Below are positions 1 through 11,766 of a stretch of 11,844 nucleotides of DNA, one piece after another (position 1 is the stretch's first letter; the number at the start of each line of letters is the position of its first letter). The notes below the pieces were generated by a model. It saw nothing but the letters and a program-made list of their open reading frames with translations. It was not told where the DNA came from and did no database searches. Origin of the DNA: a bacterium (lineage in GTDB: Bacteria > Zhuqueibacterota > Zhuqueibacteria > Oceanimicrobiales > Oceanimicrobiaceae); NCBI GenBank assembly GCA_046757025.1, contig JBHHXN010000160.1, forward strand, positions 1-11,844, read 5' to 3'. Both the position numbers and the translations under genes were made by a program.

Positions 1-52
1 AACTCTCAGGCTCAAACTTTTTTTTGCTTAGAATGAACTGTCGAAGTTGGGG

Positions 53-289
53 TAGCGCGGCGGAGCCGCAAATGTTTAAAGGACTTGCTTTGTTGTGGTC
101 CAAACCATGGTGCTATTATCAGCCGTCATTAAGCTTCGCTGTCATTGACAGAGGTGAATTATTGCTGCTGTCTAAAATGACGCCAAAGGCAAATGACCTG
201 ATGACTTTATGACGGGTCGTGTCATTCACTTCGCGTCATTTAGCCATTTTCTTGTAAAAAAATGCAAAAGTTCAGAAGTAATACTATAA
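53..289. repeat. 237-bp dispersed structured repeat, copy 1 (possible non-autonomous mobile element)
   Basis: Direct comparison: 53-289 matches 11530-11766 in the same orientation with 2 substitutions (81 G vs 11558 T; 135 T vs 11612 C); the flanks differ. Begins TAG plus a GCGGC-GGA-GCCGC hairpin (57-69) and ends AATACTATAA. Confidence 0.95.
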
Positions 290-330
290 GACGTGGTTGT
301 GTCTGGAATATGAGGCGAACGGATGCCACA

Positions 331-350
331 CCTGCCTGGAAGCAGACAGG
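331..350. repeat. Short REP-like imperfect palindrome CCTGCCTG-GAAG-CAGACAGG
   Basis: 8-bp arms with one mismatch and a 4-nt loop. From recall it resembles a common small extragenic palindrome type (CCTGCCTG..CAGRCAGG). Single copy in the window. Confidence 0.45.
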
Positions 351-455
351 GGATAATTAAGGAGTTACCATAACATACGTACCCGAGCTGGTAAGCATTA
401 ATTGAAAGCCTAATTACGCGATTCTGAGGGGGCGGGGTTCTGTGTTCAAGCTTCA

Positions 456-588
456 GAGCCTGTGTGAAAATGTGACACAAGCATCTTGCTTGCGAGAATG
501 GATTGCTAAGAAAACAAGAACTTAGCTTGAATTATAGACCTGTTTTAACAAGCCAGAGGCTTGTTTTACCATGTTTTCACACAGTTTC
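456..588. mobile_element. 133-bp MITE with IS1182-like terminal inverted repeats and a 4-bp target duplication
   Basis: Left end GAGCCTGTGTGAAAA (456-470) and right end TTTTCACACAGTTTC (574-588) are 13/15 inverted, with the inner 11 bp perfect. TTCA is directly repeated at 452-455 and 589-592. No credible internal gene. The family assignment rests on recalled resemblance to IS1182 ends (..TTTTCACACAG..). Confidence 0.75.
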
Positions 589-849
589 TTCAGCTTGCCC
601 GGGGGTGGGGACAACCACGCCAGAGTGCGGACTCCAACTCTGTCGTCCATTACTAAATAAATTCAAGGCACAACCGGTCAAATCGGCGTTTTCATAGGGG
701 ACGGCAGGGTTAATAAAATAGTCAACAGTACAGCGAATTTTATTCTTATTGTGCAGAGATGCCTCATAAATTGACCATTCATTTCACGACTTATTAGCGT
801 TTTGGTTAATTATTTCTCATTTCTGAAATTTCTTAAAATTGAGAATTCT

Positions 850-864
850 GTAAACCGGGTTTAC
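850..864. promoter_or_regulatory. Operator-like palindrome GTAAACC-G-GGTTTAC
   Basis: Perfect 7-1-7 inverted repeat in AT-rich intergenic DNA ~170 bp upstream of the 1035 start; resembles LacI/GalR-family operators. Confidence 0.45.
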
Positions 865-955
865 CAATTCTGAGAAAAGAAATCACCGAAGGCTGGCGAT
901 AGAAACCATTCACTGAAGCTAATTTTAATTTTTACAGTCATCTGTAATAAAAATC

Positions 956-966
956 AAACCCGGTTT
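956..966. promoter_or_regulatory. Second operator-like palindrome AAACC-C-GGTTT
   Basis: Exact reverse complement of the core 852-862 (AAACCGGGTTT); lies ~70 bp upstream of the start codon. Confidence 0.35.
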
Positions 967-1034
967 TGGAGCAAATAAAATGGCATAATTTTTGGGCTTA
1001 GTTGTATGTTTTCAATCCGGAGGACTTCATTCAA

Positions 1035-3176
1035 ATGAAACAAACTCTCATTAACGGGGCAATCGCTGGCTACCTGTGTGTCAGCATAACCGGGGGATTT
1101 TGCCAAGAATGGCTCTGGGTGCAGGACGACCGGGTGCTGAATCCCAGTGGCCTGGACATCCGCAGCAACAGCACCCAGTTTCAAGTGCTGGACTGGAACG
1201 GCGACGGCTTGTGGGATTTTATGATCAACGAGACCGGCGAAATAGTGTATTACGAGCAGGTTCCGGGGCAGGAGCCATTCTGGACTGTAAAAGCCATCGA
1301 GCTGCCGAAGATCGGTTTCAATCTTGAATATTCTGGCTTGCTGCCCGGTAATTTTCAATTCTTTGACTGGGACGAGGACGGCGATTTTGATTTAGCCGCG
1401 GACAGTTCCCGATTCTGGTGGAACCAGGGCAGCAACTTCACACCTGTATGGATTATTGATGATGCGCTTTTGAGCGGGATCAAATTCGATGATTCAGACC
1501 TCGGTTGCAATTTCTGTTTTAGCGATTACGACGGAGATGGTGACTGGGATGTGCTGGCTAGTCGTCCGGAATATTTTGAGATACGACTCTTCTTGAATGC
1601 AGGCGATAACAATCAACCGACCTGGCTCAAAGATGATATATTGATCCCCTTCGGGCGGTCAATTCCATTTGGACACTCTGCGAAGTTTGTGAACTGGGAT
1701 TCGGATAGCACATTGGATTTGGCGGTACTCGACATATTGGCTGGCACCCAGGTTTTCCCGACCGGATTCGGTGCGGCTGGATTTGTAAACCGGGGGATAG
1801 CTCTTGCACCGGATTGGCAAGACCTTCGTTCCGTTCGCCTTTTCTGGACGAGCCTGAAAACACCTGTGGCGCCCGCGTATGGTCTTGTGAATTACAATCA
1901 GGACTTTTTAACCGATGTTGTTAAAACCGATTGGCAGCGCCATATTGCCATCCATTTCAATAAAGGTACGATCGATTCCGCATTGATCGATTGGGAAGGT
2001 GATTTGCTTCTTGGGGCTGTGAATGTCGAATCCAGAGCGAGACCGTTTTTCTACTATGCCCATGGCGACGACCTGCCAGATCTATTAGTAACGGGGGACT
2101 CTCTCATCGACTTTTTTGTCAATGTTTTTTATGATGGCCGCATGCACACCTACCAGAATTTGGACGGACAGTTTGACCCTGGAGTCGAATTAACAGAAAA
2201 CGTCCCCAGCACCGCCTACACGTTCTACCCGAATTTCCAGAAGAGTCTAACCTTGACGATCGCCGACGTCGATGTTGACGGCGACCATGATTATCTGATG
2301 GGATTCATCCAAACCGATCAAGCCGGAAATGCCGTGAGCAAGGGCGTGCTCTATTATCAAAATATCGGCACGGCCGCCCAACCCAACTGGCAGCCCGATT
2401 CCACCCGCTTTACTTACTTTCTTGCGCCCGACTCCAATTTCTACGACCCGCGCCTGGTGGATATCGACCACGACGACGATTTCGACTTGTTCATTCAAAG
2501 GCAGGGGAAATACACTTTTTACGAGCGCCTGAATAGTGCTGAGGAAAGCTGGCGGCAAAACGAAGCCTGGCTGTCCGGTCTGGATTCGCGGGAGCATTAC
2601 AGCGCGGTGTTTGCGGATTTGACCCGCGACGGTAAACAAGACCTGGTGTTTGGCGGGTTTGACGGCACGCTGAGCTTTTTTGAGAATGTCGGCGCCGCGA
2701 GCGCCCCGGCCTGGAAGCACATACCAGAAGCCTTTGCCGGCCTCGATGTCGATTCCTTGGCAGCGCCGGCCTTCGCCGATATCGATGGAGACAGCCGTTT
2801 GGACATGGTGGTGGGCAACGCCCACGGCTGGCTGTTCTACTTCCGCAACGAGTCCACCGTGGACGTTTCCTCAGAAGCCGACTCGAGACCAGGACAATTT
2901 CAACTATTCCAGAACTATCCCAACCCCTTCAACCCGGCCACCACGATTGAATACGAGCTGGCGAAACCCGGTCACGTGCAGCTTACCATCTACAACCTCC
3001 TGGGTCAGCGCGTGCACACCCTGGTGGACGCGTGGCAACCGGGGGGGCGCCATCGCGTGGTCTGGGATGGTCTGGGAGAAAACCGGCTTGCCTTGACCAG
3101 CGGTATTTACTTCTACGAGTTGCGACACGGCAATCTGTCACTGTCAATCAGGCGTAAGATGGCGCTCATTCGCTGA
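1035..3176 (+). CDS. Secreted FG-GAP/VCBS-type repeat protein with C-terminal T9SS type A / FlgD-Ig-like sorting domain (paralog 1)
   Basis: Long ORF. Start moved from TTG 1002 to ATG 1035 (GGAGG at 1019-1023; signal peptide MKQTLINGAIAGYLCVSITGGFC|QEW). About 10 DxDxDG-type motifs (DWNGDG, DWDEDGD, DYDGDGD, DVDVDGD, DLTRDG, DIDGDS and others). C-terminal QNYPNPFNPATTIEY..IYNLLGQ..SGIYFY..RKMALIR. Confidence 0.9.
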   Translation: MKQTLINGAIAGYLCVSITGGFCQEWLWVQDDRVLNPSGLDIRSNSTQFQVLDWNGDGLWDFMINETGEIVYYEQVPGQEPFWTVKAIELPKIGFNLEYSGLLPGNFQFFDWDEDGDFDLAADSSRFWWNQGSNFTPVWIIDDALLSGIKFDDSDLGCNFCFSDYDGDGDWDVLASRPEYFEIRLFLNAGDNNQPTWLKDDILIPFGRSIPFGHSAKFVNWDSDSTLDLAVLDILAGTQVFPTGFGAAGFVNRGIALAPDWQDLRSVRLFWTSLKTPVAPAYGLVNYNQDFLTDVVKTDWQRHIAIHFNKGTIDSALIDWEGDLLLGAVNVESRARPFFYYAHGDDLPDLLVTGDSLIDFFVNVFYDGRMHTYQNLDGQFDPGVELTENVPSTAYTFYPNFQKSLTLTIADVDVDGDHDYLMGFIQTDQAGNAVSKGVLYYQNIGTAAQPNWQPDSTRFTYFLAPDSNFYDPRLVDIDHDDDFDLFIQRQGKYTFYERLNSAEESWRQNEAWLSGLDSREHYSAVFADLTRDGKQDLVFGGFDGTLSFFENVGAASAPAWKHIPEAFAGLDVDSLAAPAFADIDGDSRLDMVVGNAHGWLFYFRNESTVDVSSEADSRPGQFQLFQNYPNPFNPATTIEYELAKPGHVQLTIYNLLGQRVHTLVDAWQPGGRHRVVWDGLGENRLALTSGIYFYELRHGNLSLSIRRKMALIR
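2928..3042 (+). repeat. Intragenic direct repeat: sorting-domain coding segment shared with 5098-5212
   Basis: Ungapped hand alignment: 12 mismatches in 115 bp (~90% identity), offset 2170 bp. Confidence 0.9.
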
Positions 3177-3195
3177 GCGCCGAGAGGTGTAGAAG

Positions 3196-5343
3196 ATGAA
3201 AATTTGCCTCGCCTTTTCATTATGCATGCTTGTACCGCTGATCCACGTTCACCCTTCATTTGCACAAGAATGGGTCTGGCAGCGAGATGATCTGGTTCTC
3301 AATCCCTCTGGGCTCGATCTGACTGATGTCACTAGTTGGGCCTGGGGCGATTTAGACCGGGACGGGCACGTAGATGTAATCTTAAGAAAGAAGGGTTCGA
3401 CCGTTGACAGCCGTTTGGTGGCGTATCGTGGCCGTAATTCCTCCGCGCCGCCTTACTGGGAGGAGGCACCAGAGTTGCTCGCCAGCTTGGATGAGTCACG
3501 AGGATCCAAAGGTGTCGTCCTGGTAGATCTAAATGGCGACCATTGGCTAGATTTGGTTACAGAGTTCGAAGCCGATCGTTTCACTTCGACGTGGAATTTG
3601 CTTTTTTGGAAGAAGGATTCTGAGAACCGGTGGCAGGCCGATTCCACGGTTTTTCGAGGCATTGAGCTAGCCTACCCATATCGCTCGAATGAGCCACATT
3701 TCGCCGATGCGGACAACGACGGAGACCTTGATATGGTACTCGGATCGTATCCTTGGGGAGCAAATGAGAAGTTCCGTTTCTACATCAATGCAGGGGATGC
3801 CTCTCATCCGATCTGGGAAGAAGACTCCACTCGCATCGAGTTGGTAAACCAGGCTCCTGCGGGGTACGAGAGTTGGTCTCCCATCCTCGCACACGTCGAT
3901 GACGACCAGCTCCTGGACTTGGTGGTGGCTTACGTAATTGAAGGTTTTTACGGTTTGGCAGTTTATCCTGGTGTAACGGATGGATTGGATTTCCACTGGG
4001 CAGGTAGGCCTCAATATTTTCAACAGGAGTTCTTTGGAGGCATTCGCAAGCTCGTGCCTATTGATATGAACTCGGATCGGATGCAGGAGTTAGTCATCCT
4101 CGAGGAGGTTGCAACTGGAAGAGTGTACCACGACAGGTCATTCGCCAGCTCGAGCTATTTTCGCCTGGGTCCGATCAATTTCAACTATTACGCCTCCGCG
4201 ACTCCATTTGACTACAACCACGATCAGACCATGGAGCTGTTAGCGGGCGGATTCTGGGGTGGTTTCTATTCGCAGATTGACTTTGATTCTTATGAGAAAG
4301 CTGAATGGGTGGGATGGCAGTTGTGGAAACAAACAGGGTGGTTCGATGCGCCGTTCAGGATTTATGACCTGGCGCTCGTCAAGATTGGACTCACCGATAT
4401 AGATCGCAATGGTCTTTCCGACTTGATCATCTCGTCCGTGAAGTCTTATTCTGAGAGAACGGACTTCATGGCCTATGAAAATGCCGACCCCAATTTGCGG
4501 GAAAACTGGAACGAGCGTAACGATCTCATCGCGCCGTTTTATAACCAAGGCCGCGCTCCCGATACCAGCTACTTCGAAGCCAGTTTTGCTGACTTGGACG
4601 GTGATGGCGATCCCGATATCTTGGTTCAGCAGAAACTCTACGTCGGTCCCGACAGCGGCAAGTGCGCATATCGTTTTTTCGAAAATGAGCTCGGAGCGGG
4701 GACGATCCATTGGAAAGCCCGTTCGGACTGGCTGAATGGTCTGGAACCGAGCCTTGAGGAAGCCTTTTATGGTAACTTCGGGGACCTGGATCTGGACGGC
4801 GACCACGACTTGGTTTTTGGTACGGAGTCAGGCACACTTATGTTGTACGAGAATGTTGGCAACCAGACTTCACCGAGATGGCGGCTAAACCGAGATGCCT
4901 TTAGCGGAATAGATTTAGGTGGTTATGCGACGCCGTCCTTTGGTGATTCGGATCGTGATGGTAAATTGGACATGTTTGTCGGCACCAGATCAGGGAATCT
5001 TGTTTTCTATCGAAATGAGACCATTGTGAAGGTTGAAGAGGATAATTCTGATCTCAGACCAGGTGCATTCAGCTTAGCGCAGAACTTCCCGAATCCGTTC
5101 AACCCGGCCACCACGATTGAGTACGAGCTGGCCAAACCCGGCCGCGTGCAGCTTGCTATTTACAACCTCCTCGGTCAGCGCGTGCGCATCCTGGTGGACG
5201 CGCGGCAGCCGGCCGGAAGTTATCGTGTGCATTGGGACGGGAGAGTAGAGGGTGGAGCAAAGAGGGTAGCCAGCGGCGTGTACGTGTACGAGTTGCAAGT
5301 AGGGAAATTCACCGCCAGAAAGAAATTGCTTTTGATTCGTTAA
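3196..5343 (+). CDS. Secreted FG-GAP/VCBS-type repeat protein with C-terminal T9SS type A / FlgD-Ig-like sorting domain (paralog 2)
   Basis: 715-aa ORF with a GAGAGG RBS, starting 19 bp after paralog 1. Signal peptide ends SFA|QEWVW. About 10 DxDxDG motifs (DLDRDG, DLNGD, DADNDG, DIDRNG, DLDGDG, DLDLDG, DSDRDG and others). C-terminal QNFPNPFNPATTIEY..SGVYVY..KKLLLIR. Confidence 0.9.
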   Translation: MKICLAFSLCMLVPLIHVHPSFAQEWVWQRDDLVLNPSGLDLTDVTSWAWGDLDRDGHVDVILRKKGSTVDSRLVAYRGRNSSAPPYWEEAPELLASLDESRGSKGVVLVDLNGDHWLDLVTEFEADRFTSTWNLLFWKKDSENRWQADSTVFRGIELAYPYRSNEPHFADADNDGDLDMVLGSYPWGANEKFRFYINAGDASHPIWEEDSTRIELVNQAPAGYESWSPILAHVDDDQLLDLVVAYVIEGFYGLAVYPGVTDGLDFHWAGRPQYFQQEFFGGIRKLVPIDMNSDRMQELVILEEVATGRVYHDRSFASSSYFRLGPINFNYYASATPFDYNHDQTMELLAGGFWGGFYSQIDFDSYEKAEWVGWQLWKQTGWFDAPFRIYDLALVKIGLTDIDRNGLSDLIISSVKSYSERTDFMAYENADPNLRENWNERNDLIAPFYNQGRAPDTSYFEASFADLDGDGDPDILVQQKLYVGPDSGKCAYRFFENELGAGTIHWKARSDWLNGLEPSLEEAFYGNFGDLDLDGDHDLVFGTESGTLMLYENVGNQTSPRWRLNRDAFSGIDLGGYATPSFGDSDRDGKLDMFVGTRSGNLVFYRNETIVKVEEDNSDLRPGAFSLAQNFPNPFNPATTIEYELAKPGRVQLAIYNLLGQRVRILVDARQPAGSYRVHWDGRVEGGAKRVASGVYVYELQVGKFTARKKLLLIR
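5098..5212 (+). repeat. Intragenic direct repeat: sorting-domain coding segment shared with 2928-3042
   Basis: Second copy of the 115-bp, ~90% identical segment. Confidence 0.9.
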
Positions 5344-5592
5344 AATTTTCGCTTAATTTAACTACTCAACGGAATTTCAGTTTAAATGAAAATATTTTTT
5401 CGGAACCGACTTTTGCAACATCACAAGGTGACGATATTCATGGTGAACAAAGTCGAACCATGATGCTGCGCATTTAACTAATTTTCAATAAATTGCCCAG
5501 CTCTTCACCCTGTGGGAAGTCGTAGGGTGCGTCAGGATAAAAAAAATAAACAGAAGTCCATTTTTTCAGAAACCAAAGGAGGTAAGGGGCGC

Positions 5593-6054
5593 ATGGCACA
5601 GATAAAATCTAAAATTGCACAGCAGGTGGAAAAGGATCACGATCTGTTGAGGCAGGATATCGGCGATTTGAAAATCACTTTCTGGGAAGAAGTTTTGCCA
5701 GAAGATTTTTCCAACTGGCGGCTGGAGTGCATCTGGCAGCTCAGGGATTTCAAAAACCGGCTATTAAAACACTTCGATCTGGAAGAAGAGGGCGGATTCA
5801 TGCAGGATGTTCTAAATGTCGCGCCGCAAGCTGAGCGCCAGGTGCAGCAGTTGAAAGCCGAGCACGAGCAAATTTCAGCCCAATTAGATGAAGTGCTGGC
5901 AGAGCTGAAGGAGATGCCCGAAAAGGATGCCAAAAGTTTGGATACCATTCGGACTAAATTAAATGATATCATGAACACCATTCGCAAACATGAAAATGAA
6001 GAGCATAAACTCCTGCAAAAGGCGTACTATCGCGAATATGGGGGACCAGCGTGA
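5593..6054 (+). CDS. Hemerythrin-like (HHE cation-binding) domain protein
   Basis: Start placed at ATG 5593 after AAGGAGGTAAGGGG. All-helical, 153 aa, with H..HxxxE..H..HxxxE ligand spacing (DHDLL, HFDLEE, EHEQI, HENEE). Confidence 0.85.
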   Translation: MAQIKSKIAQQVEKDHDLLRQDIGDLKITFWEEVLPEDFSNWRLECIWQLRDFKNRLLKHFDLEEEGGFMQDVLNVAPQAERQVQQLKAEHEQISAQLDEVLAELKEMPEKDAKSLDTIRTKLNDIMNTIRKHENEEHKLLQKAYYREYGGPA

Positions 6055-6145
6055 TTTATTTTGGCATTTTAATGAAATTTGAAATGATCAGAAATTAAAT
6101 GTAATGAATCTTATTTGAAGATGTTATTGAAACGGAGGATTTAAC

Positions 6146-7465
6146 ATGAAATCATCAGAAATGAAACGCAAAAAATCAAAAGAACAGTATCGCATGCGCA
6201 CCCACCTAATACACGGAAATTTCGAGAGCAAGAAGTGGGATTACGACCACCACATCAATCCTCCCATGTCCACTTCGGCCATGTACCGCTTGAGCTCGGC
6301 CCAGCGCGGCGCCCAGGGTTTTTTTGAGTTTGCCAGCGAAAGCGTTGACCACACGCAGCACATCCCCATCTACATTTACGATCGTCTTGACGAGCCCAGC
6401 CGCGGCATGCTCGAGGAGAACCTCGCTTATGCGGAGAGGGGGGAAATGTGTCTGACTTTCGCCACCGGCATGGCGGCCATCAGTGCAGCGGTTTGTATTT
6501 TATGTGAACAGGGACATGAGATCGTCGCCCACCAGGTGACCTACGGCTGTACTTACAGTCTGTTCAACAACTGGCTGCCGCGGTTTGGCATCCAAACCCG
6601 GTGGACGGATGTCAACAACGAGGAGGCGCTGCGACAGGCGATTACCGACAAAACGCGTGTGCTGTATTTTGAAACCCCCATCAATCCGACCTTGACTCTG
6701 GTGGATATTGCTGCCATGCGTAAAATCGTTGATGAAATCAACAGTCGGCGTCCAAAGGAAAAACACATCAAAATCATTGTGGACAACACGTTTGCTTCAC
6801 CCTATTGCCAGCGCCCCTTGGAGCTGGGCGCCAATTTTTCCGTGCAAAGCTTGACCAAAGGAGTCAGCGGTTATGGCACCGATATGGGCGGCGCGATTGT
6901 GACTCAAAAGAAATACTACGGCCAGCTCATGCTTTACCGCAAAGATTTTGGCGGGGTCCTCAATCCCAAAAGCGCCTGGGTCTTCCTGGTGTACGGGTTG
7001 CCCTCACTGGCCACACGCTTTACCAATCAAATCAAAACCGCGCAGCACGTGGCCAAATTCCTGCGTGAACACCCCAAAGTCGAGAAAGTGGTGTACCCGG
7101 GCTTAGAGGACCATCCGCAGTTCGAATTGGCCAAACGCCAGATGACCAATCCCGATGGTAAGTTTGCGCCGGGCAGTATGATTTATTTCCTACTGAAGGG
7201 TGCCGAAGTCAATGGTAAACAGAGCCCCAGGGTGGAGAAATTTATCGACTACATCGCCGACCACGCCTACTGCATCACCCTGGCCGTCAGTCTGGGCTAC
7301 ATGAAAACGCTGGTGGAAAACGCCTACTCCATGACCCACCAGGCCATGCCCGAGGATGAAAAACGTCGGATGGGCATGGAGCCCGGCGGCATCCGGCTCT
7401 CAGTGGGACTCGAAGACTGGCACGACATCACCGAAGATTTGGGGGATGCTTTAGAGCGCATTTAA
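6146..7465 (+). CDS. PLP-dependent Cys/Met-metabolism (trans-sulfuration family) enzyme, methionine gamma-lyase-like
   Basis: GGAGG RBS. Motifs FATGMAAI, YGCT, FETPINP, VDNTFASP, SLTK (PLP lysine), YPGL, AVSLG, SMTH, IRLSVGLED. The YGCT cysteine is typical of methionine gamma-lyases. Confidence 0.88.
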   Translation: MKSSEMKRKKSKEQYRMRTHLIHGNFESKKWDYDHHINPPMSTSAMYRLSSAQRGAQGFFEFASESVDHTQHIPIYIYDRLDEPSRGMLEENLAYAERGEMCLTFATGMAAISAAVCILCEQGHEIVAHQVTYGCTYSLFNNWLPRFGIQTRWTDVNNEEALRQAITDKTRVLYFETPINPTLTLVDIAAMRKIVDEINSRRPKEKHIKIIVDNTFASPYCQRPLELGANFSVQSLTKGVSGYGTDMGGAIVTQKKYYGQLMLYRKDFGGVLNPKSAWVFLVYGLPSLATRFTNQIKTAQHVAKFLREHPKVEKVVYPGLEDHPQFELAKRQMTNPDGKFAPGSMIYFLLKGAEVNGKQSPRVEKFIDYIADHAYCITLAVSLGYMKTLVENAYSMTHQAMPEDEKRRMGMEPGGIRLSVGLEDWHDITEDLGDALERI

Positions 7466-7495
7466 CAATTTTCAGACGGTAGTGTCAAAAGTTCT

Positions 7496-8017
7496 ATGAA
7501 CAAGACCGGAGCAGGAAATTTGCTGCCATTGTTATTTACGGTGTTATGGCTTTGCAGCCAATTGAATCAGGCTGTTGCCCAGGAGGAATCGGAAAAACGA
7601 AAATTTGGCATCTCGGCTTCGCTGCAAAGCAGCCAATTTGATATTCTCCTGCCATTCTGGTTGGATGATAAAACCGTCATCGCGCCGGCCGTCAACGTGG
7701 TTTTTATTGAAGACGGTGCCACCGACTTGGGTATTGGTATTGCCCCGAGTATTTATCTTCGCACTGCAAAAGCGGCTCCTTATATAAGCGCACGGGTTGG
7801 GAGCTTCCTCAACAATATAGAAGGTGGAAACTCAACCACTGATTGGCTGCTGGGATTGGCGTTTGGCGGGGAATATTTTTTCGATCCAAAATTCAGCATT
7901 GATGTGGAAACGCAGGTGAATGCCACCATTTCAGACGCCGGTTCTTTGCGATTTGGGAATCCCGGTGGCTTTAATTTGAATACCGGCACTGCCGTCATTG
8001 CCAGTATTTATTTTTGA
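7496..8017 (+). CDS. Small outer-membrane beta-barrel protein
   Basis: Signal peptide ending AVA|QEE; alternating amphipathic strands (APYISARVG, GLAFGGEYFFDPKFSIDVETQV); C-terminal aromatic ..IASIYF. Confidence 0.8.
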   Translation: MNKTGAGNLLPLLFTVLWLCSQLNQAVAQEESEKRKFGISASLQSSQFDILLPFWLDDKTVIAPAVNVVFIEDGATDLGIGIAPSIYLRTAKAAPYISARVGSFLNNIEGGNSTTDWLLGLAFGGEYFFDPKFSIDVETQVNATISDAGSLRFGNPGGFNLNTGTAVIASIYF

Positions 8018-8098
8018 TTGAATTCACAAAAATAAGAGTTACTGTTCTGAATCCGCTCTATTATAACTGTAAGAGATATTTTCACGCTTCATTCTTAG

Positions 8099-9226
8099 AT
8101 GGCAAAAAAGAGATTACTCATTCTGGGCGGTTATGGCAACACCGGCCGGCATATCTGCCGCCTGTTGCTGCAAGAGACCGATGTCGAGCTCATGCTCGGC
8201 GGCCGCAGTCCTGATAAAGCGCATCAGGCTGCAGATGAGTTGAACCGGGAGATTGATGGAAAACGGGCAGCCGGAATGTGCGTCGATGCCTCTCTCCAGA
8301 AAAGCCTGCAAGCCGCTTTTCAAGATGTCGATATGATTATCGCGGCCTCTTCGACTGCCGAATATGCTCGACTTACCGCAGAAGCCGCTTTGAGCTGCGA
8401 CATAGATTACCTGGATATTCACTTCTCGCCTGACAAAGTTCGTGAGCTGCAGTCTCTGAAGCACAATATCCAAAAAGCCGGCCGTTGTTTTATTACGGAG
8501 GCCGGATTTCATCCGGGCTTGCCCGCCGCGCTTATTCGACATGCCGCAAAGCTATTCACGGAAATTGACAGTGCCTGTGTCGGCAGTTTGATTCTACAAA
8601 AAATCCCCACATGGGATTCCGTGACCGAAATAGTTAACGCCTACAAAAATTACAACGGCCAATTTTATGAAAACGGCAGATGGCGCAAGTTTGAGTCACG
8701 TAAATTCGATTTTGGCAATGAATTCGGAAAGCGCACCTGCTATTCTCTGTTTTTAGAAGAATTGCGACAAATTCCACAAGTATTGCCAGCCCTCACCAAA
8801 GCCGGTTTTTATATGGCGGGATTTAACTGGTTTGTGGATTGGTTTTTTACGCCTGCTGCCATGCTCTCTTTAAAAATCTGGCCGCGAATAGCCATTAACC
8901 CCCTGGCAGCTTGCCTGCGTTGGGGGATCAACACTTTTTCTTCTCCGCCTTTTGGCACGCTGCTGAAAGTGGAAGCACACGGCGTAAAAAATGGCCAAAA
9001 GGCGTCTTTCGAAATGCGCCTTTTTAATGAAGACGCTTATCTTTTCACCGCGATCGCGGTCGTGGCCTGTTTGCTGCAATATCTGGATGGCCGCATTCTA
9101 AAACCCGGTCTCTGGATGATGGGGCAAGTGGTGGAGCCACGGCGGCTCTTGAAAGACATGAAACGCATGGGCATTGAAATAACCGAAAAAATGGAGGGCG
9201 CCGATGCCGTCAACGCTAAACGTTGA
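8099..9226 (+). CDS. Saccharopine dehydrogenase-like NAD(P)-binding oxidoreductase
   Basis: N-terminal Rossmann motif ILGGYGNTG, plus GGRS, DYLDI and AGFHPGLP motifs typical of the family; substrate unknown. Confidence 0.82.
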   Translation: MAKKRLLILGGYGNTGRHICRLLLQETDVELMLGGRSPDKAHQAADELNREIDGKRAAGMCVDASLQKSLQAAFQDVDMIIAASSTAEYARLTAEAALSCDIDYLDIHFSPDKVRELQSLKHNIQKAGRCFITEAGFHPGLPAALIRHAAKLFTEIDSACVGSLILQKIPTWDSVTEIVNAYKNYNGQFYENGRWRKFESRKFDFGNEFGKRTCYSLFLEELRQIPQVLPALTKAGFYMAGFNWFVDWFFTPAAMLSLKIWPRIAINPLAACLRWGINTFSSPPFGTLLKVEAHGVKNGQKASFEMRLFNEDAYLFTAIAVVACLLQYLDGRILKPGLWMMGQVVEPRRLLKDMKRMGIEITEKMEGADAVNAKR

Positions 9227-9488
9227 CCTGATGGTGCTGGTGGGTGTGATCCTGCTCATCTTCTTTTTTTGCGGCTGGATCATCAAACGCGACTGGATCG
9301 ACAAAAAACAAATTACCTCCGGAGCGCAATTTACCGGCGAAAATGTTTTGCTGCAGTATCAAAATGAAGATAAAAAACACGCGCTGGAGCATGTCATCTA
9401 CATGCGAGACCAGGAGGAAGTCAACGACGAAGAGGGTGAGGACATCAGTCGATTGCCCGCCAGGAACAAGAAAAAAGCTAAAGGATGA
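9204..9488 (+). CDS. Small single-pass membrane protein, hypothetical
   Basis: GGAGGG just upstream of ATG 9204; overlaps the previous gene by 23 nt; N-terminal hydrophobic helix (LMVLVGVILLIFFFCGWII) followed by KR and an acidic/basic tail. Confidence 0.65.
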   Translation: MPSTLNVDLMVLVGVILLIFFFCGWIIKRDWIDKKQITSGAQFTGENVLLQYQNEDKKHALEHVIYMRDQEEVNDEEGEDISRLPARNKKKAKG

Positions 9489-9553
9489 CAGGAATGCCCA
9501 TTCAGATTAGCCGCTTTTTTTCTGGAATTGGAAACTTCTGGGGGCGAATGCTT

Positions 9554-10813
9554 TTATGACAAGAAATGCGCCACTTTGTTGAAACCGTTTTCTTTTAACG
9601 ATTGATCCCAGCGTTCCAGCAGGTAATATTTTTCTCCTTCAAACACGCGATTGATGTTTTCTAAATAGAGCTCGGCATCCCTGGTGTTCATGCTGGCCGT
9701 TTTGTTCACAAAAGATAACGTGCGCGAATGGTAAAACGGAATGAGGGCTTGCAGCAACTCGGAGCGTTCGACTTTCTGACTGCGGTAGGCAATGGCAAAA
9801 TCGAATACGATGCGCGCCCAAACGTTGCTGGGAAAATAAAACTCATCACAGGTCATTTGCTGCAGGCGTTCTACCACCTGCCAATTTTGTAAAGACAACA
9901 CCGACTGCCAGAGGTCGTGGTATTTTTTCAGCCCCGATTTAAATGAGTTGTGCAAACGTGTACGATTGACTTTTACTTCCGGCGGATCGATATTTTGACC
10001 GAGCCCAAAACCGTAAATGATGCTGGGTCGGGACTTAAAGGTGTCTTTCCAGAGATATTCGAAATCGATCATCAATTGAAAAATCGTTCCCACTACCTGC
10101 AGAAACATGGGTCCTAAATCGCTGCCGGGGTCCTTGGCGCGATGAGATTTGGGCGAACCCATAAAGGTCTGGCAAATGTTAAAATGCCGGCCCAGGGCGA
10201 TGGTGGTCATCCAGACGTCGATGCCAAAATTGGAAACATCTTCGGACCAGGTTTTTTCAACCAGGTAGCAGCGTGCTAATTTGCCGGATACACCGAAATC
10301 GCCGCCGATGGGCTGCCGAACCCGCAAACCGTACAGAGTACGCAGCATGGGGTACGCGATGTTATTGGTGATGGTGCCGTCGTATTTGTGCCGAATATAG
10401 ATGGGCACCACGTAGTCGTAACCGTCGAAAAGCGGCAGGGAGAGGTGCTCGATCCACTCAGGAGTGATGCTCTTCAGATCGGCGTCCAACATGATGATGG
10501 CTTTGGCGCGCAGCTCAACCGCCACTTCAAATAAATTGCACACGTTCAGCCCCTTGCCTTTTTTGTTTTTCGGTGTGGAAACGTAGATTTTCGGCACTTT
10601 GGTCGGTGTGTTCAAAAACGCTTTTTTGGTATTGTCGGGAGAGTGATTGTCCACATTGATTATCACCGACGATTTATTTGGATAAAATTCCATGAGGCCC
10701 TTGCTGGCGATGTCCACCGGAATGGCGATGGAATCCGCTTCGTTGTACGATGGCACACCCACGACGATATCTGCTGAGGTAATACGGTCTGGATTCTCAA
10801 GTTGATCAATCAT
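9554..10813 (-). CDS. GT-A glycosyltransferase, glucosylglycerate synthase / mannosylglycerate synthase-like
   Basis: 419-aa ORF with VGVPSYNE, GKG, DAD (DxD), RHKYDGTITN, RQPIGGDFG and FGIDVWMT motifs, recalled from single-step glycosylglycerate synthases; sugar donor not determinable. Confidence 0.75.
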   Translation of the reverse strand: MIDQLENPDRITSADIVVGVPSYNEADSIAIPVDIASKGLMEFYPNKSSVIINVDNHSPDNTKKAFLNTPTKVPKIYVSTPKNKKGKGLNVCNLFEVAVELRAKAIIMLDADLKSITPEWIEHLSLPLFDGYDYVVPIYIRHKYDGTITNNIAYPMLRTLYGLRVRQPIGGDFGVSGKLARCYLVEKTWSEDVSNFGIDVWMTTIALGRHFNICQTFMGSPKSHRAKDPGSDLGPMFLQVVGTIFQLMIDFEYLWKDTFKSRPSIIYGFGLGQNIDPPEVKVNRTRLHNSFKSGLKKYHDLWQSVLSLQNWQVVERLQQMTCDEFYFPSNVWARIVFDFAIAYRSQKVERSELLQALIPFYHSRTLSFVNKTASMNTRDAELYLENINRVFEGEKYYLLERWDQSLKENGFNKVAHFLS

Positions 10814-10983
10814 GGCTTTAACCAGTGGCTAGTTTTGAGTTCGGTTGCTTGTTCAGTTAACAAAATAATTAACCATAATAAAACAATTTCCTTTCAATAG
10901 CAAGATAAAACTGCGCATTTCCGTGACTGACTTATTACGCATTCACTGCTATTTAGTGCCTGAACAAAAACTCCCCAACGTTC

Positions 10984-11004
10984 AGCGGGACCGCTCGCAA
11001 TGAC
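10984..11004. repeat. Possible remnant half of a REP-like repeat (AGCGG-GA-CCGCT overlapping CTCGCAATGAC)
   Basis: CTCGCAATGAC (10994-11004) is recalled as one arm of widespread GTCATTGCGAG..CTCGCAATGAC extragenic repeats; no partner arm nearby. Confidence 0.3.
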
Positions 11005-11234
11005 ATCATCCTCTTTGATTTCTTAAGTTTTCGTTCAAACATAATTTATCCTGAATAATGCATAGCCACGAAGTCACAAACTATTGTAAATATTGTGTAA
11101 AAGAGAATTCAAAAGATTACATCAGAAAACTCAGCTTTAAACTCATGCGTGTACGGTTATCCAATTTACTCAGAAAGTGTCATTCTGCTATATTGAAAAG
11201 CAAGCCATTTTTCCATAATTTATTGAAATACAAA

Positions 11235-11343
11235 TGCTTTTCTTCTTTCGAAGAGCACTTTTCGTTTTGTTTTACACCGTTTTTGTGTAGAACAAAACGA
11301 GAAGGTCTTGTTCGTTCGTGTTTTTTCGATCGAACAATTTTTT
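11235..11343 (+). ncRNA. Candidate structured RNA: three consecutive hairpins followed by a U-tract
   Basis: Stems 11235-11242/11250-11257, 11258-11277/11285-11304 and 11308-11318/11327-11337, then T6 at 11338-11343. The non-Watson-Crick pairs in the first two stems are all U-G on the + strand. Confidence 0.4.
11308..11343 (+). terminator. Intrinsic-terminator-like hairpin plus T-run
   Basis: TTGTTCGTTCG / CGATCGAACAA (11 bp, 1 mismatch, 8-nt loop) followed directly by TTTTTT. Confidence 0.45.
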
Positions 11344-11529
11344 CACAAACGGGATATTTATGCGCTTATTTTTGACTGTCTGCTATTCGTGGTCCACCTT
11401 TCAAAGTGGCCGACAATTTCTTTATTCGTAAAAACAAAGAAATACATGACACCGCATACTGAAGACAAGGTTATTCACTCAGTGAGTCAACACAATTAGA
11501 ATGACACCGCGGTTGTCTGGTTATAAACC

Positions 11530-11766
11530 TAGCGCGGCGGAGCCGCAAATGTTTAAATGACTTGCTTTGTTGTGGTCCAAACCATGGTGCTATTATCAGC
11601 CGTCATTAAGCCTCGCTGTCATTGACAGAGGTGAATTATTGCTGCTGTCTAAAATGACGCCAAAGGCAAATGACCTGATGACTTTATGACGGGTCGTGTC
11701 ATTCACTTCGCGTCATTTAGCCATTTTCTTGTAAAAAAATGCAAAAGTTCAGAAGTAATACTATAA
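11530..11766. repeat. 237-bp dispersed structured repeat, copy 2
   Basis: Direct copy of 53-289 with 2 substitutions. Confidence 0.95.

Follow-up and report, generated by a model that had tools for sequence, protein, structure and literature searches.

In the insertion sequence (IS) IS91, as described in the available part of PMC13181058, a target tetranucleotide lies beside the ori end and a similar one beside the palindrome of the ter end, the target is not duplicated, and the bottom strand is the substrate. All rolling-circle transposons in the literature that we surveyed have an HUH enzyme. For Rep_trans initiators and MOBT relaxases (PF02486), the same literature gives roles only in plasmid and phage replication and in the transfer of integrative and conjugative elements. 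Here, we consider a window of 11,844 nt (the whole stretch of DNA analyzed), which is the entire contig C160 (GenBank JBHHXN010000160.1) of a 374-contig genome of the Zhuqueibacterota, and in which a gene-less 234-bp element, family A, occurs twice on the plus strand, as copy A (positions 52–285) and copy B (11529–11762). We assign a probability of about 0.7 to the reading that these repeats are non-autonomous members of an undescribed IS class, likely moving like IS91 with a nickase that is not of the HUH type; the likely mover of the 234-bp element, acting in trans, is a protein of about 500 amino acids (aa).

The original prediction described 237-nt direct repeats at 53–289 and 11530–11766, with two mismatches, a spacing of 11,477 nt, unrelated flanks, and no mobility gene in between. 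All this is reproduced, and no transposase or recombinase family is found in the nine window proteins scanned. The ends are indeed precise to the base, but the 237-nt span was wrong: it took in four letters of target DNA (ATAA) on the right and missed the first base of the element on the left, so that the mobile unit is 234 bp long. Counting copies in the source genome, as had been suggested together with the prediction, gives 21 full-length ones on 19 contigs, as well as 16 left-end and 13 right-end fragments, all 29 of which stop precisely at contig ends; there are 37 distinct left junctions, each with a different flank, and 34 distinct right junctions. Copies near both ends of a contig are a frequent by-product of assembly, and contigs C80 and C139 are likewise bracketed by direct copies. 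Copy number, ends, and target, as well as the association with a gene given below, are direct observations.

The left end of copy B (11529–11546) consists of CTAG, one base, and a 5-bp hairpin (GCGGC-GGA-GCCGC), an arrangement common to sister families and gene-bearing elements. The left end of copy A (52–69) has the same hairpin (57–69); here, G replaces the usual first C, and the copy abuts the end of another IS. The right end of copy B (11724–11762) is an AT-rich imperfect palindrome (11724–11746) followed by 16 nt ending with AGTAATACT, and the right end of copy A (247–285) does not differ from it. Copy B is identical to nine copies elsewhere, while copy A differs from it at 3 of 234 positions. 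The element is preceded by C at 36 of 37 sites and directly followed by ATAA in 30 of 34 right junctions, among them those of copy B (11763–11766; TTAT on the opposite strand, single in the empty form) and copy A (286–289). The target-site duplication is 0 nt in 20 of 21 copies and 1 nt in a tandem case, and the 234 bp contain no end-to-end inverted repeat. Short duplications such as ATAAT, hinted at by two junctions, were ruled out by the full junction test. IS110/IS1111 elements with a CT core were considered because family A begins and ends with CT; they were rejected, as the empty forms contain no CT and the sole IS110 contig lacks these ends. Within the same family, 11 of the 18 genomes searched contain sequences related to the repeat, compared with none of 12 more distant genomes; a pattern for the right end had further matches in records with the titles KSB1/Zhuqueibacterota, Neomarinimicrobiota, and Cytophagia.

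For empty sites, we used contigs of four public runs from a single study, the source sample possibly being among them. A candidate for an empty-site allele lacking one copy, which the original prediction proposed to look for, is found for copy B: in runs X2, X3, and X4, position 11526 is joined through two letters (TC) to 11763, giving a net insertion of 234 bp, and therefore ATAA belongs to the target. The copy at C56:8836–9069 has an empty form in X2 that is 234 bp shorter, with 30 letters on the short side; for the other C56 copy no empty form was seen in the run contigs. Empty paralogues within the genome match the same joint at C241, C5, and C36, while the C51 paralogue is one base shorter. 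At C324, one element is inserted exactly at the left junction of another, head-to-tail.

Given the flanks and the empty forms, we regard it as extremely improbable that the repeat is an assembly artefact or, instead of mobile DNA, a conserved structured RNA or regulatory site. The plus strand does fold better than shuffled sequences (z −2.6), and the filled junctions, known from the genome assembly, are not bridged by the Logan pieces listed, which reach only 28 letters into copy A, below the 31-letter bridging rule, and in the four runs do not include the filled copy B junction; yet the 37 different left and 34 different right flanks meet base-precise ends, there is no Rfam match at E ≤ 1, orientation and position relative to the neighboring genes are not fixed, and one sister copy interrupts a reading frame (C130). 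A consensus scan found no outward promoter at the right end. Neither a transfer RNA nor a CRISPR (clustered regularly interspaced short palindromic repeat) nature is suggested by the sequence.

The original prediction left a choice between a recently active non-autonomous element inserted twice and a composite unit mobilized in trans. The first of these is supported by about 37 sites, 10 identical copies, and empty forms of two sites in related samples: each repeat is best explained as a separate insertion of the gene-less 234-bp element, and the pair does not border a gene unit. That the pair delimits a composite unit with the 11.2-kb block is very unlikely, although the copies are in direct orientation and 99% identical, and, if the rolling circle is true, read-through of the left end of copy B could carry the block to copy A in the one-ended style of IS91 (PMC13181058, available part). 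The copies are scattered over about 37 sites, and for 37 random sites about 2.5 neighbor pairs within 11.5 kb, 1.3 of them direct, are expected by chance. Copy B is nearer to nine distant copies than to copy A, and copy A lacks the usual first base of the left end. The intervening host genes (290–11528), lying outside the mobile unit, are single-copy, with orthologues and partial gene order in relatives, and in the run contigs the block occurs with an empty B site, so it does not move or vary as a unit. The flanking 234-bp repeats carry no gene of their own. Relatives keep the gene for the pyridoxal 5'-phosphate (PLP) enzyme of the block with no repeat match nearby (0 of 13 loci, about 1.5 kb on each side). 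Scattered copies together with relatives that have the genes but not the repeats are the outcome that the original prediction had named as refuting the composite unit. The composite-cassette idea is ordinary and unsupported; an 11.5-kb circle formed by homologous recombination is possible in principle, as it is conceivable for any direct pair.

Other gene-less families, with lengths of 160, 178, 195, 216, and about 310 bp and unrelated middles, share these ends. Their left end is CTAR or CCAG, one base, and a 5-bp GC hairpin, the tetranucleotide beside the hairpin being CTAG, CTAA, or CCAG; their right end is mostly the same as in family A, i.e., an AT-rich palindrome, 16 nt, and ATACT, and in two sister families with unrelated middles the last ~40 nt are 87.5–92.5% alike. 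In the 160-bp family, 13 copies are full and 12 are left fragments. Among the elements with these ends, both right-end-only and left-end-only copies are present. Pairing in the left hairpin appears to be maintained: among 13 distinct ends, 89% of cells are paired with five double changes, and 0 of 500 shuffles score as high; since the structure was derived from these same, related sequences, the covariation is supportive only. A loose left-end pattern, with 282 matches against 135–160 in shuffles, was excluded from counting. Near-perfect palindromes of about 50 bp resembling two back-to-back right ends, with no left end, are seen at G000:C150:6604 and C256:154, and an element at G000:C3:67200 has inward-facing left ends at both extremities, each preceded by TTAACC-GA-TA-T. 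In many gene-less elements (L019, L008, L064–L184), the middles are inverted arrays of short 7–10-nt repeats, resembling those that flank four-helix-bundle and GxxExxY genes.

Longer versions with a gene between the same ends, also anticipated by the original prediction, exist in other genomes, where the ends flank a gene for a ~500-aa protein. The first lead was a match of a viral contig to the left end, followed by a decayed gene. A metagenome scan with a pattern that has the first 19 nt of family A and continues as in a sister family gave at least 122 left-end matches (99 with at least 250 nt downstream and 104 with at least 250 nt upstream); among the 122 listed, the gene lies downstream on the same strand in 8, and upstream or on the opposite strand in none. 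Among genomes of the family and of the phylum, the protein search found the gene in 7 of 20 and in 25 of 167, respectively; 14 plasmid records have it as well. The left motif is upstream at 8 of 16 distinct protein-found loci (those that include the N-terminus and 100 nt or more of upstream sequence), with a background of 70 in 3,000 random 600-nt windows (2.3%); at C46, the left motif 395 nt upstream belongs to a separate small element inserted there, and this locus is counted as a miss.

Right ends were placed for two gene-bearing elements, TTTTTGCA-A5-TGCAAAG...AAGACT/CTAA after the stop codon in G007 and GAGTAATACT/ATAA after the gene in G159, where the terminal 9 nt are as in copy B (slashes mark the element border). 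Both are close to the right end of family A, AAGTAATACT/ATAA. The G159 end has 18 matches in its own genome versus 0 for the reversed control, and in three genomes 15 of 25 distinct matches are followed by ATAA or ATAG, bases that are absent from the pattern; for the right end of the G007 element, no further copies in G007 were found besides itself. A right-end scan of viral sequences yielded 31 loci, most in one phage gene and none with the left end of the element in the 330 nt shown, and one query of the viral contigs returned no relative of the ~500-aa protein. One contig (L185, G007:C340) is exactly one gene-bearing element, starting with CCTAA and ending with CTAA; this could be a circle, a tandem, or merely a conserved target. 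In a distant clade (L189, L190), a different, longer left hairpin follows CTAG or CTAC, and a strong 11–14-bp palindrome is centered 27 nt from the right end.

The strict orientation of the left end with the ~500-aa gene (8 to 0 among the matches listed) bears on another explanation, by which a known HUH transposase (IS91-type Y2, IS200/IS605 TnpA, or Y1 associated with repetitive extragenic palindromes) carries the element along as a passenger and the shared ends result from nesting. According to the available part of PMC13181058, HUH transposition is marked by a terminal hairpin, a tetranucleotide target, and the absence of duplication, and the elements studied here do nest within each other. 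Y1 genes are present in the window genome, but of three matches the intact one (C146) has its own, different hairpin ends; Y2 genes occur in 7 of 21 family genomes, but 10 Y2 loci of relatives show no convincing copy of the ends, and the window genome has no Y2 match, though a control was equally silent. We consider HUH mobilization unlikely. Guide bases of the IS200/IS605 type pairing with the cleavage site were sought by eye, and no fit was seen.

By word-based searches, which give a lower bound, the ~500-aa protein has at least 7,997 relatives, mostly on ~2-kb contigs and labeled as hypothetical or MarR; one plasmid copy is annotated as ArsR. Pfam, NCBIfam, and PHROG give no significant family for its core: among 58 proteins there are only seven weak Pfam member-hits, with no match to PF02486 at E ≤ 0.01 (0/58) or to HUH/Y2 (PF04986; 0/58). 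A sequence search against solved structures returned nothing significant, and all clusters found in the ESM Atlas are of hypothetical proteins, HTH_5 being present in 12% of the members of one. Structure models are confident (predicted local distance difference test 85.9 and 89.4). Residues 386–500 of the model match winged helices, with Z up to 9.8. The core (1–383), compared with 48,161 chains, matches TBP (Z 8.9), RepDE (4cwc; Z 7.4, 175 residues, root-mean-square deviation 4.7), and RepSTK1 (4cij; Z 6.8), with unrelated partial matches interleaved.

Residues D20, Q241, E243, Y312, K314, R320, and E322 are invariant in all 58 members. They form the conserved motifs Q241-x-E243, K310-x-Y312-x-K314, and L319-R320-x-E322 together with an N-terminal Asp, and Y312-x-K314 ends the strand 307–314. 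The available part of PMC5714925 gives the Rep_trans order as N' Asp, RxD, YxKxxE, and W/LxRxE; in RepDE, Y191 acts with D46, D142, and E214, and the protein binds 23 bp downstream of the nick (PMC4797284, available part). By this motif order, the candidate catalytic residues can be tentatively equated with those of Rep_trans. The TBP sheet is known to be common to the two fold families, according to the accessible text of PMC13107129. From the model, the ~500-aa protein is predicted to combine a tyrosine nickase of the Rep_trans type with a winged helix.

On the minus strand, the element reads TTAT/AGTATT...palindrome...hairpin-G-CTAG/G. Since this is the layout of IS91, the following mechanism is proposed by analogy with IS91 and the pT181 Rep proteins, the strand used, the position of the nick, the catalysis, and the replication all being inferred. 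The winged helix would bind the palindrome ~25 bp inside the right end, Tyr312 would nick the minus strand directly after host 5'-TTAT, and the nicked strand would be displaced, released at 5'-CTAG directly after the GC hairpin of the left end, and joined to a new TTAT site. The right end of copy B would be the origin end with a putative binding site, and the hairpin at its left end would be the termination end, by analogy with terIS91. Movement would require the ends alone, which would account for sister families of 160–314 bp with unrelated middles.

Several observations weigh against an IS91-like element moved by this protein. The first is at the left junction, where empty and filled forms differ by one base within 2 nt (T versus A at copy B, T versus C at C56), a change in both strain-level empty forms that plain nick-and-join does not explain. 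Since strain differences are otherwise few per kilobase, one or two bases may travel with the element, replacing target bases, and the C preceding it at nearly all sites looks as if 1–2 bases had replaced those of the target. The same element and helper could then move without a replicative rolling circle, the element being excised and a short stretch of strand exchanged through a phosphotyrosine intermediate (recombinase-like or peel-and-paste). We rate this as improbable, though it is the foremost of the rival explanations: the three paralogue-based junctions agree with a clean joint, displaced target bases are never seen at the right junction, and the many identical copies suit copying, without proving it. 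The empty B stretch has about twice the depth of the neighboring DNA, so the empty form there may be a paralogue rather than an allele. No circle or tandem junction of family A was found in the assembled contigs of the four runs, which cannot span the repeat.

Other such observations concern the helper. An intact ~500-aa gene was not found in the window genome; the sole match, C46, is a distant-clade gene split into two frames and with end sequences that differ, and therefore an active helper would be unassembled, unbinned, or lost. None of the 21 gene-bearing loci compared shares the middle of family A, which leaves ~20 nt at one end and ~9–40 nt at the other as the link. Eight of the 16 protein-found loci have no left motif, five of these eight being in the distant clade. 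Right ends of the other gene-bearing elements were placed by eye, and an automatic scan put their palindrome centers 7 to 35 nt from the end, at no fixed distance. The fold scores are middling and TBP outranks the Rep proteins in this model-based comparison; Foldseek against PDB places 4cij second and 4cwe fourth, with none at E ≤ 0.001. Motif I is QxE, not RxD.

Compared with IS91, IS801, IS1294, and ISCR (in the available parts of the sources), the elements are alike in that they lack terminal inverted repeats and do not duplicate the target; in both, a tetranucleotide target adjoins one end, a similar tetranucleotide lies beside a palindrome at the other, and the gene points to the target-adjacent end. 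They differ in the target (TTAT/TTAG/CTAT here, CTTG/GTTC there), in the partner protein, which has no HUH/Y2 match in any of the members and a predicted TBP-like fold, and in gene-less forms vastly exceeding gene-bearing ones. With the Rep_trans initiators and MOBT relaxases (RepC/RepD/RepDE, 4cwc; RepSTK1, 4cij), the partner protein shares a predicted TBP-like core and, going by the available parts of PMC5714925 and PMC4797284, the candidate catalytic order of an N-terminal D, motif I, YxK, and RxE; in contrast to them, it has no PF02486 match, QxE for RxD, a length of ~500 aa, and a location in chromosomal insertion elements. Rep-Arvir, too, has a winged helix in combination with such a fold, and its sequence does not reveal the relationship (PMC13107129, accessible text).

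Family A resembles bacterial miniature inverted-repeat transposable elements in being short, gene-less, multi-copy, mostly intergenic, and presumably mobilized in trans, but lacks their terminal inverted repeats and duplication. Palindrome-associated elements derived from IS200/IS605 also have no inverted repeats and duplications; unlike them, the element here has no link to a Y1 transposase that we could find. The elements here resemble the eukaryotic Helitrons in that the presumed transferred strand has a hairpin and then CTRR at its 3' end, that there is no duplication, and that many forms are non-autonomous; unlike the Helitrons with their HUH Rep-helicase, they have a hairpin 1 nt from CTAG and no helicase.

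Stated in full, with even odds in our judgment, this would be a distinct class of bacterial transposons with a TBP-fold Rep_trans-type nickase, not a DDE, DEDD, HUH, serine, or tyrosine-recombinase enzyme, abundant in uncultured bacteria, with ends of ~20 and 40 bp and arbitrary middles, rewriting one or two target bases at the terminating junction. If transposition is indeed Rep_trans-like, rolling-circle transposition has two separate origins in unrelated folds, and the genes labeled as hypothetical, MarR, or ArsR include thousands of transposases. The gene-less copies reveal the bases that matter (two short ends), the target rule, and natural empty sites, so that a minimal transposition assay is straightforward; they also explain a large class of anonymous intergenic repeats and contig breaks in metagenome assemblies. 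No description of the family was found in the literature searched, most subscription papers, ISfinder, and TnCentral lying beyond the search; the available part of the digIS paper (PMC8147514) has no passage on such a family. New here are the gene-less forms, the natural empty sites, and the one-base change at the left junction.

The window begins with the end of another repeated element (1–51, minus strand), the same 51 nt also beginning contig C76; therefore, contig C160 breaks here. A near-identical terminal 20-mer lies ahead of a transposase gene in two relatives, and one such transposase that was scanned is of the IS1634 family. By terminal similarity, the element at 1–51 is likely an IS1634-family IS, and it may have altered the first base of copy A.

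In the block between the copies, two genes encode FG-GAP repeat proteins whose C-termini have a sorting-type domain. Further genes encode a protein with a hemerythrin domain, the PLP enzyme of the Cys/Met type, a likely beta-barrel, a GT2 glycosyltransferase, a small membrane protein, and a protein resembling saccharopine dehydrogenase. The methionine-lyase-like PLP enzyme scores under the NCBIfam cut-off for methionine gamma-lyase and has orthologues with 77–85% identity in 12 of 20 family genomes; the hemerythrin gene immediately precedes its gene in the window (5593–7465) and adjoins it in 5 of 11 loci of relatives, and the glycosyltransferase gene directly follows the PLP-enzyme gene in two genomes. 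The FG-GAP proteins at 1002–5343 are tandem paralogues, each ending in an FlgD-Ig or type IX secretion system-type sorting domain.

A second multi-copy repeat at 404–617 has an internal inverted repeat (arms 447–470 and 574–597) and about 20 BLAST matches elsewhere in the genome. Yet another repeat family, with copies starting with CCTGAATAAT-CATAGCCAC, is represented at 11037–11152; other copies (C241, C355) are a favored landing site for the elements described here, and the window copy is empty. Positions 11152–11223 also match the end of contig C114. The region 11169–11526 is probably duplicated in the population, since its depth is about twice that of its neighbors in three of four runs. 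At 6814–6949, within the PLP-enzyme gene, run X3 has 13 clustered substitutions, resembling a recombined tract from another strain.

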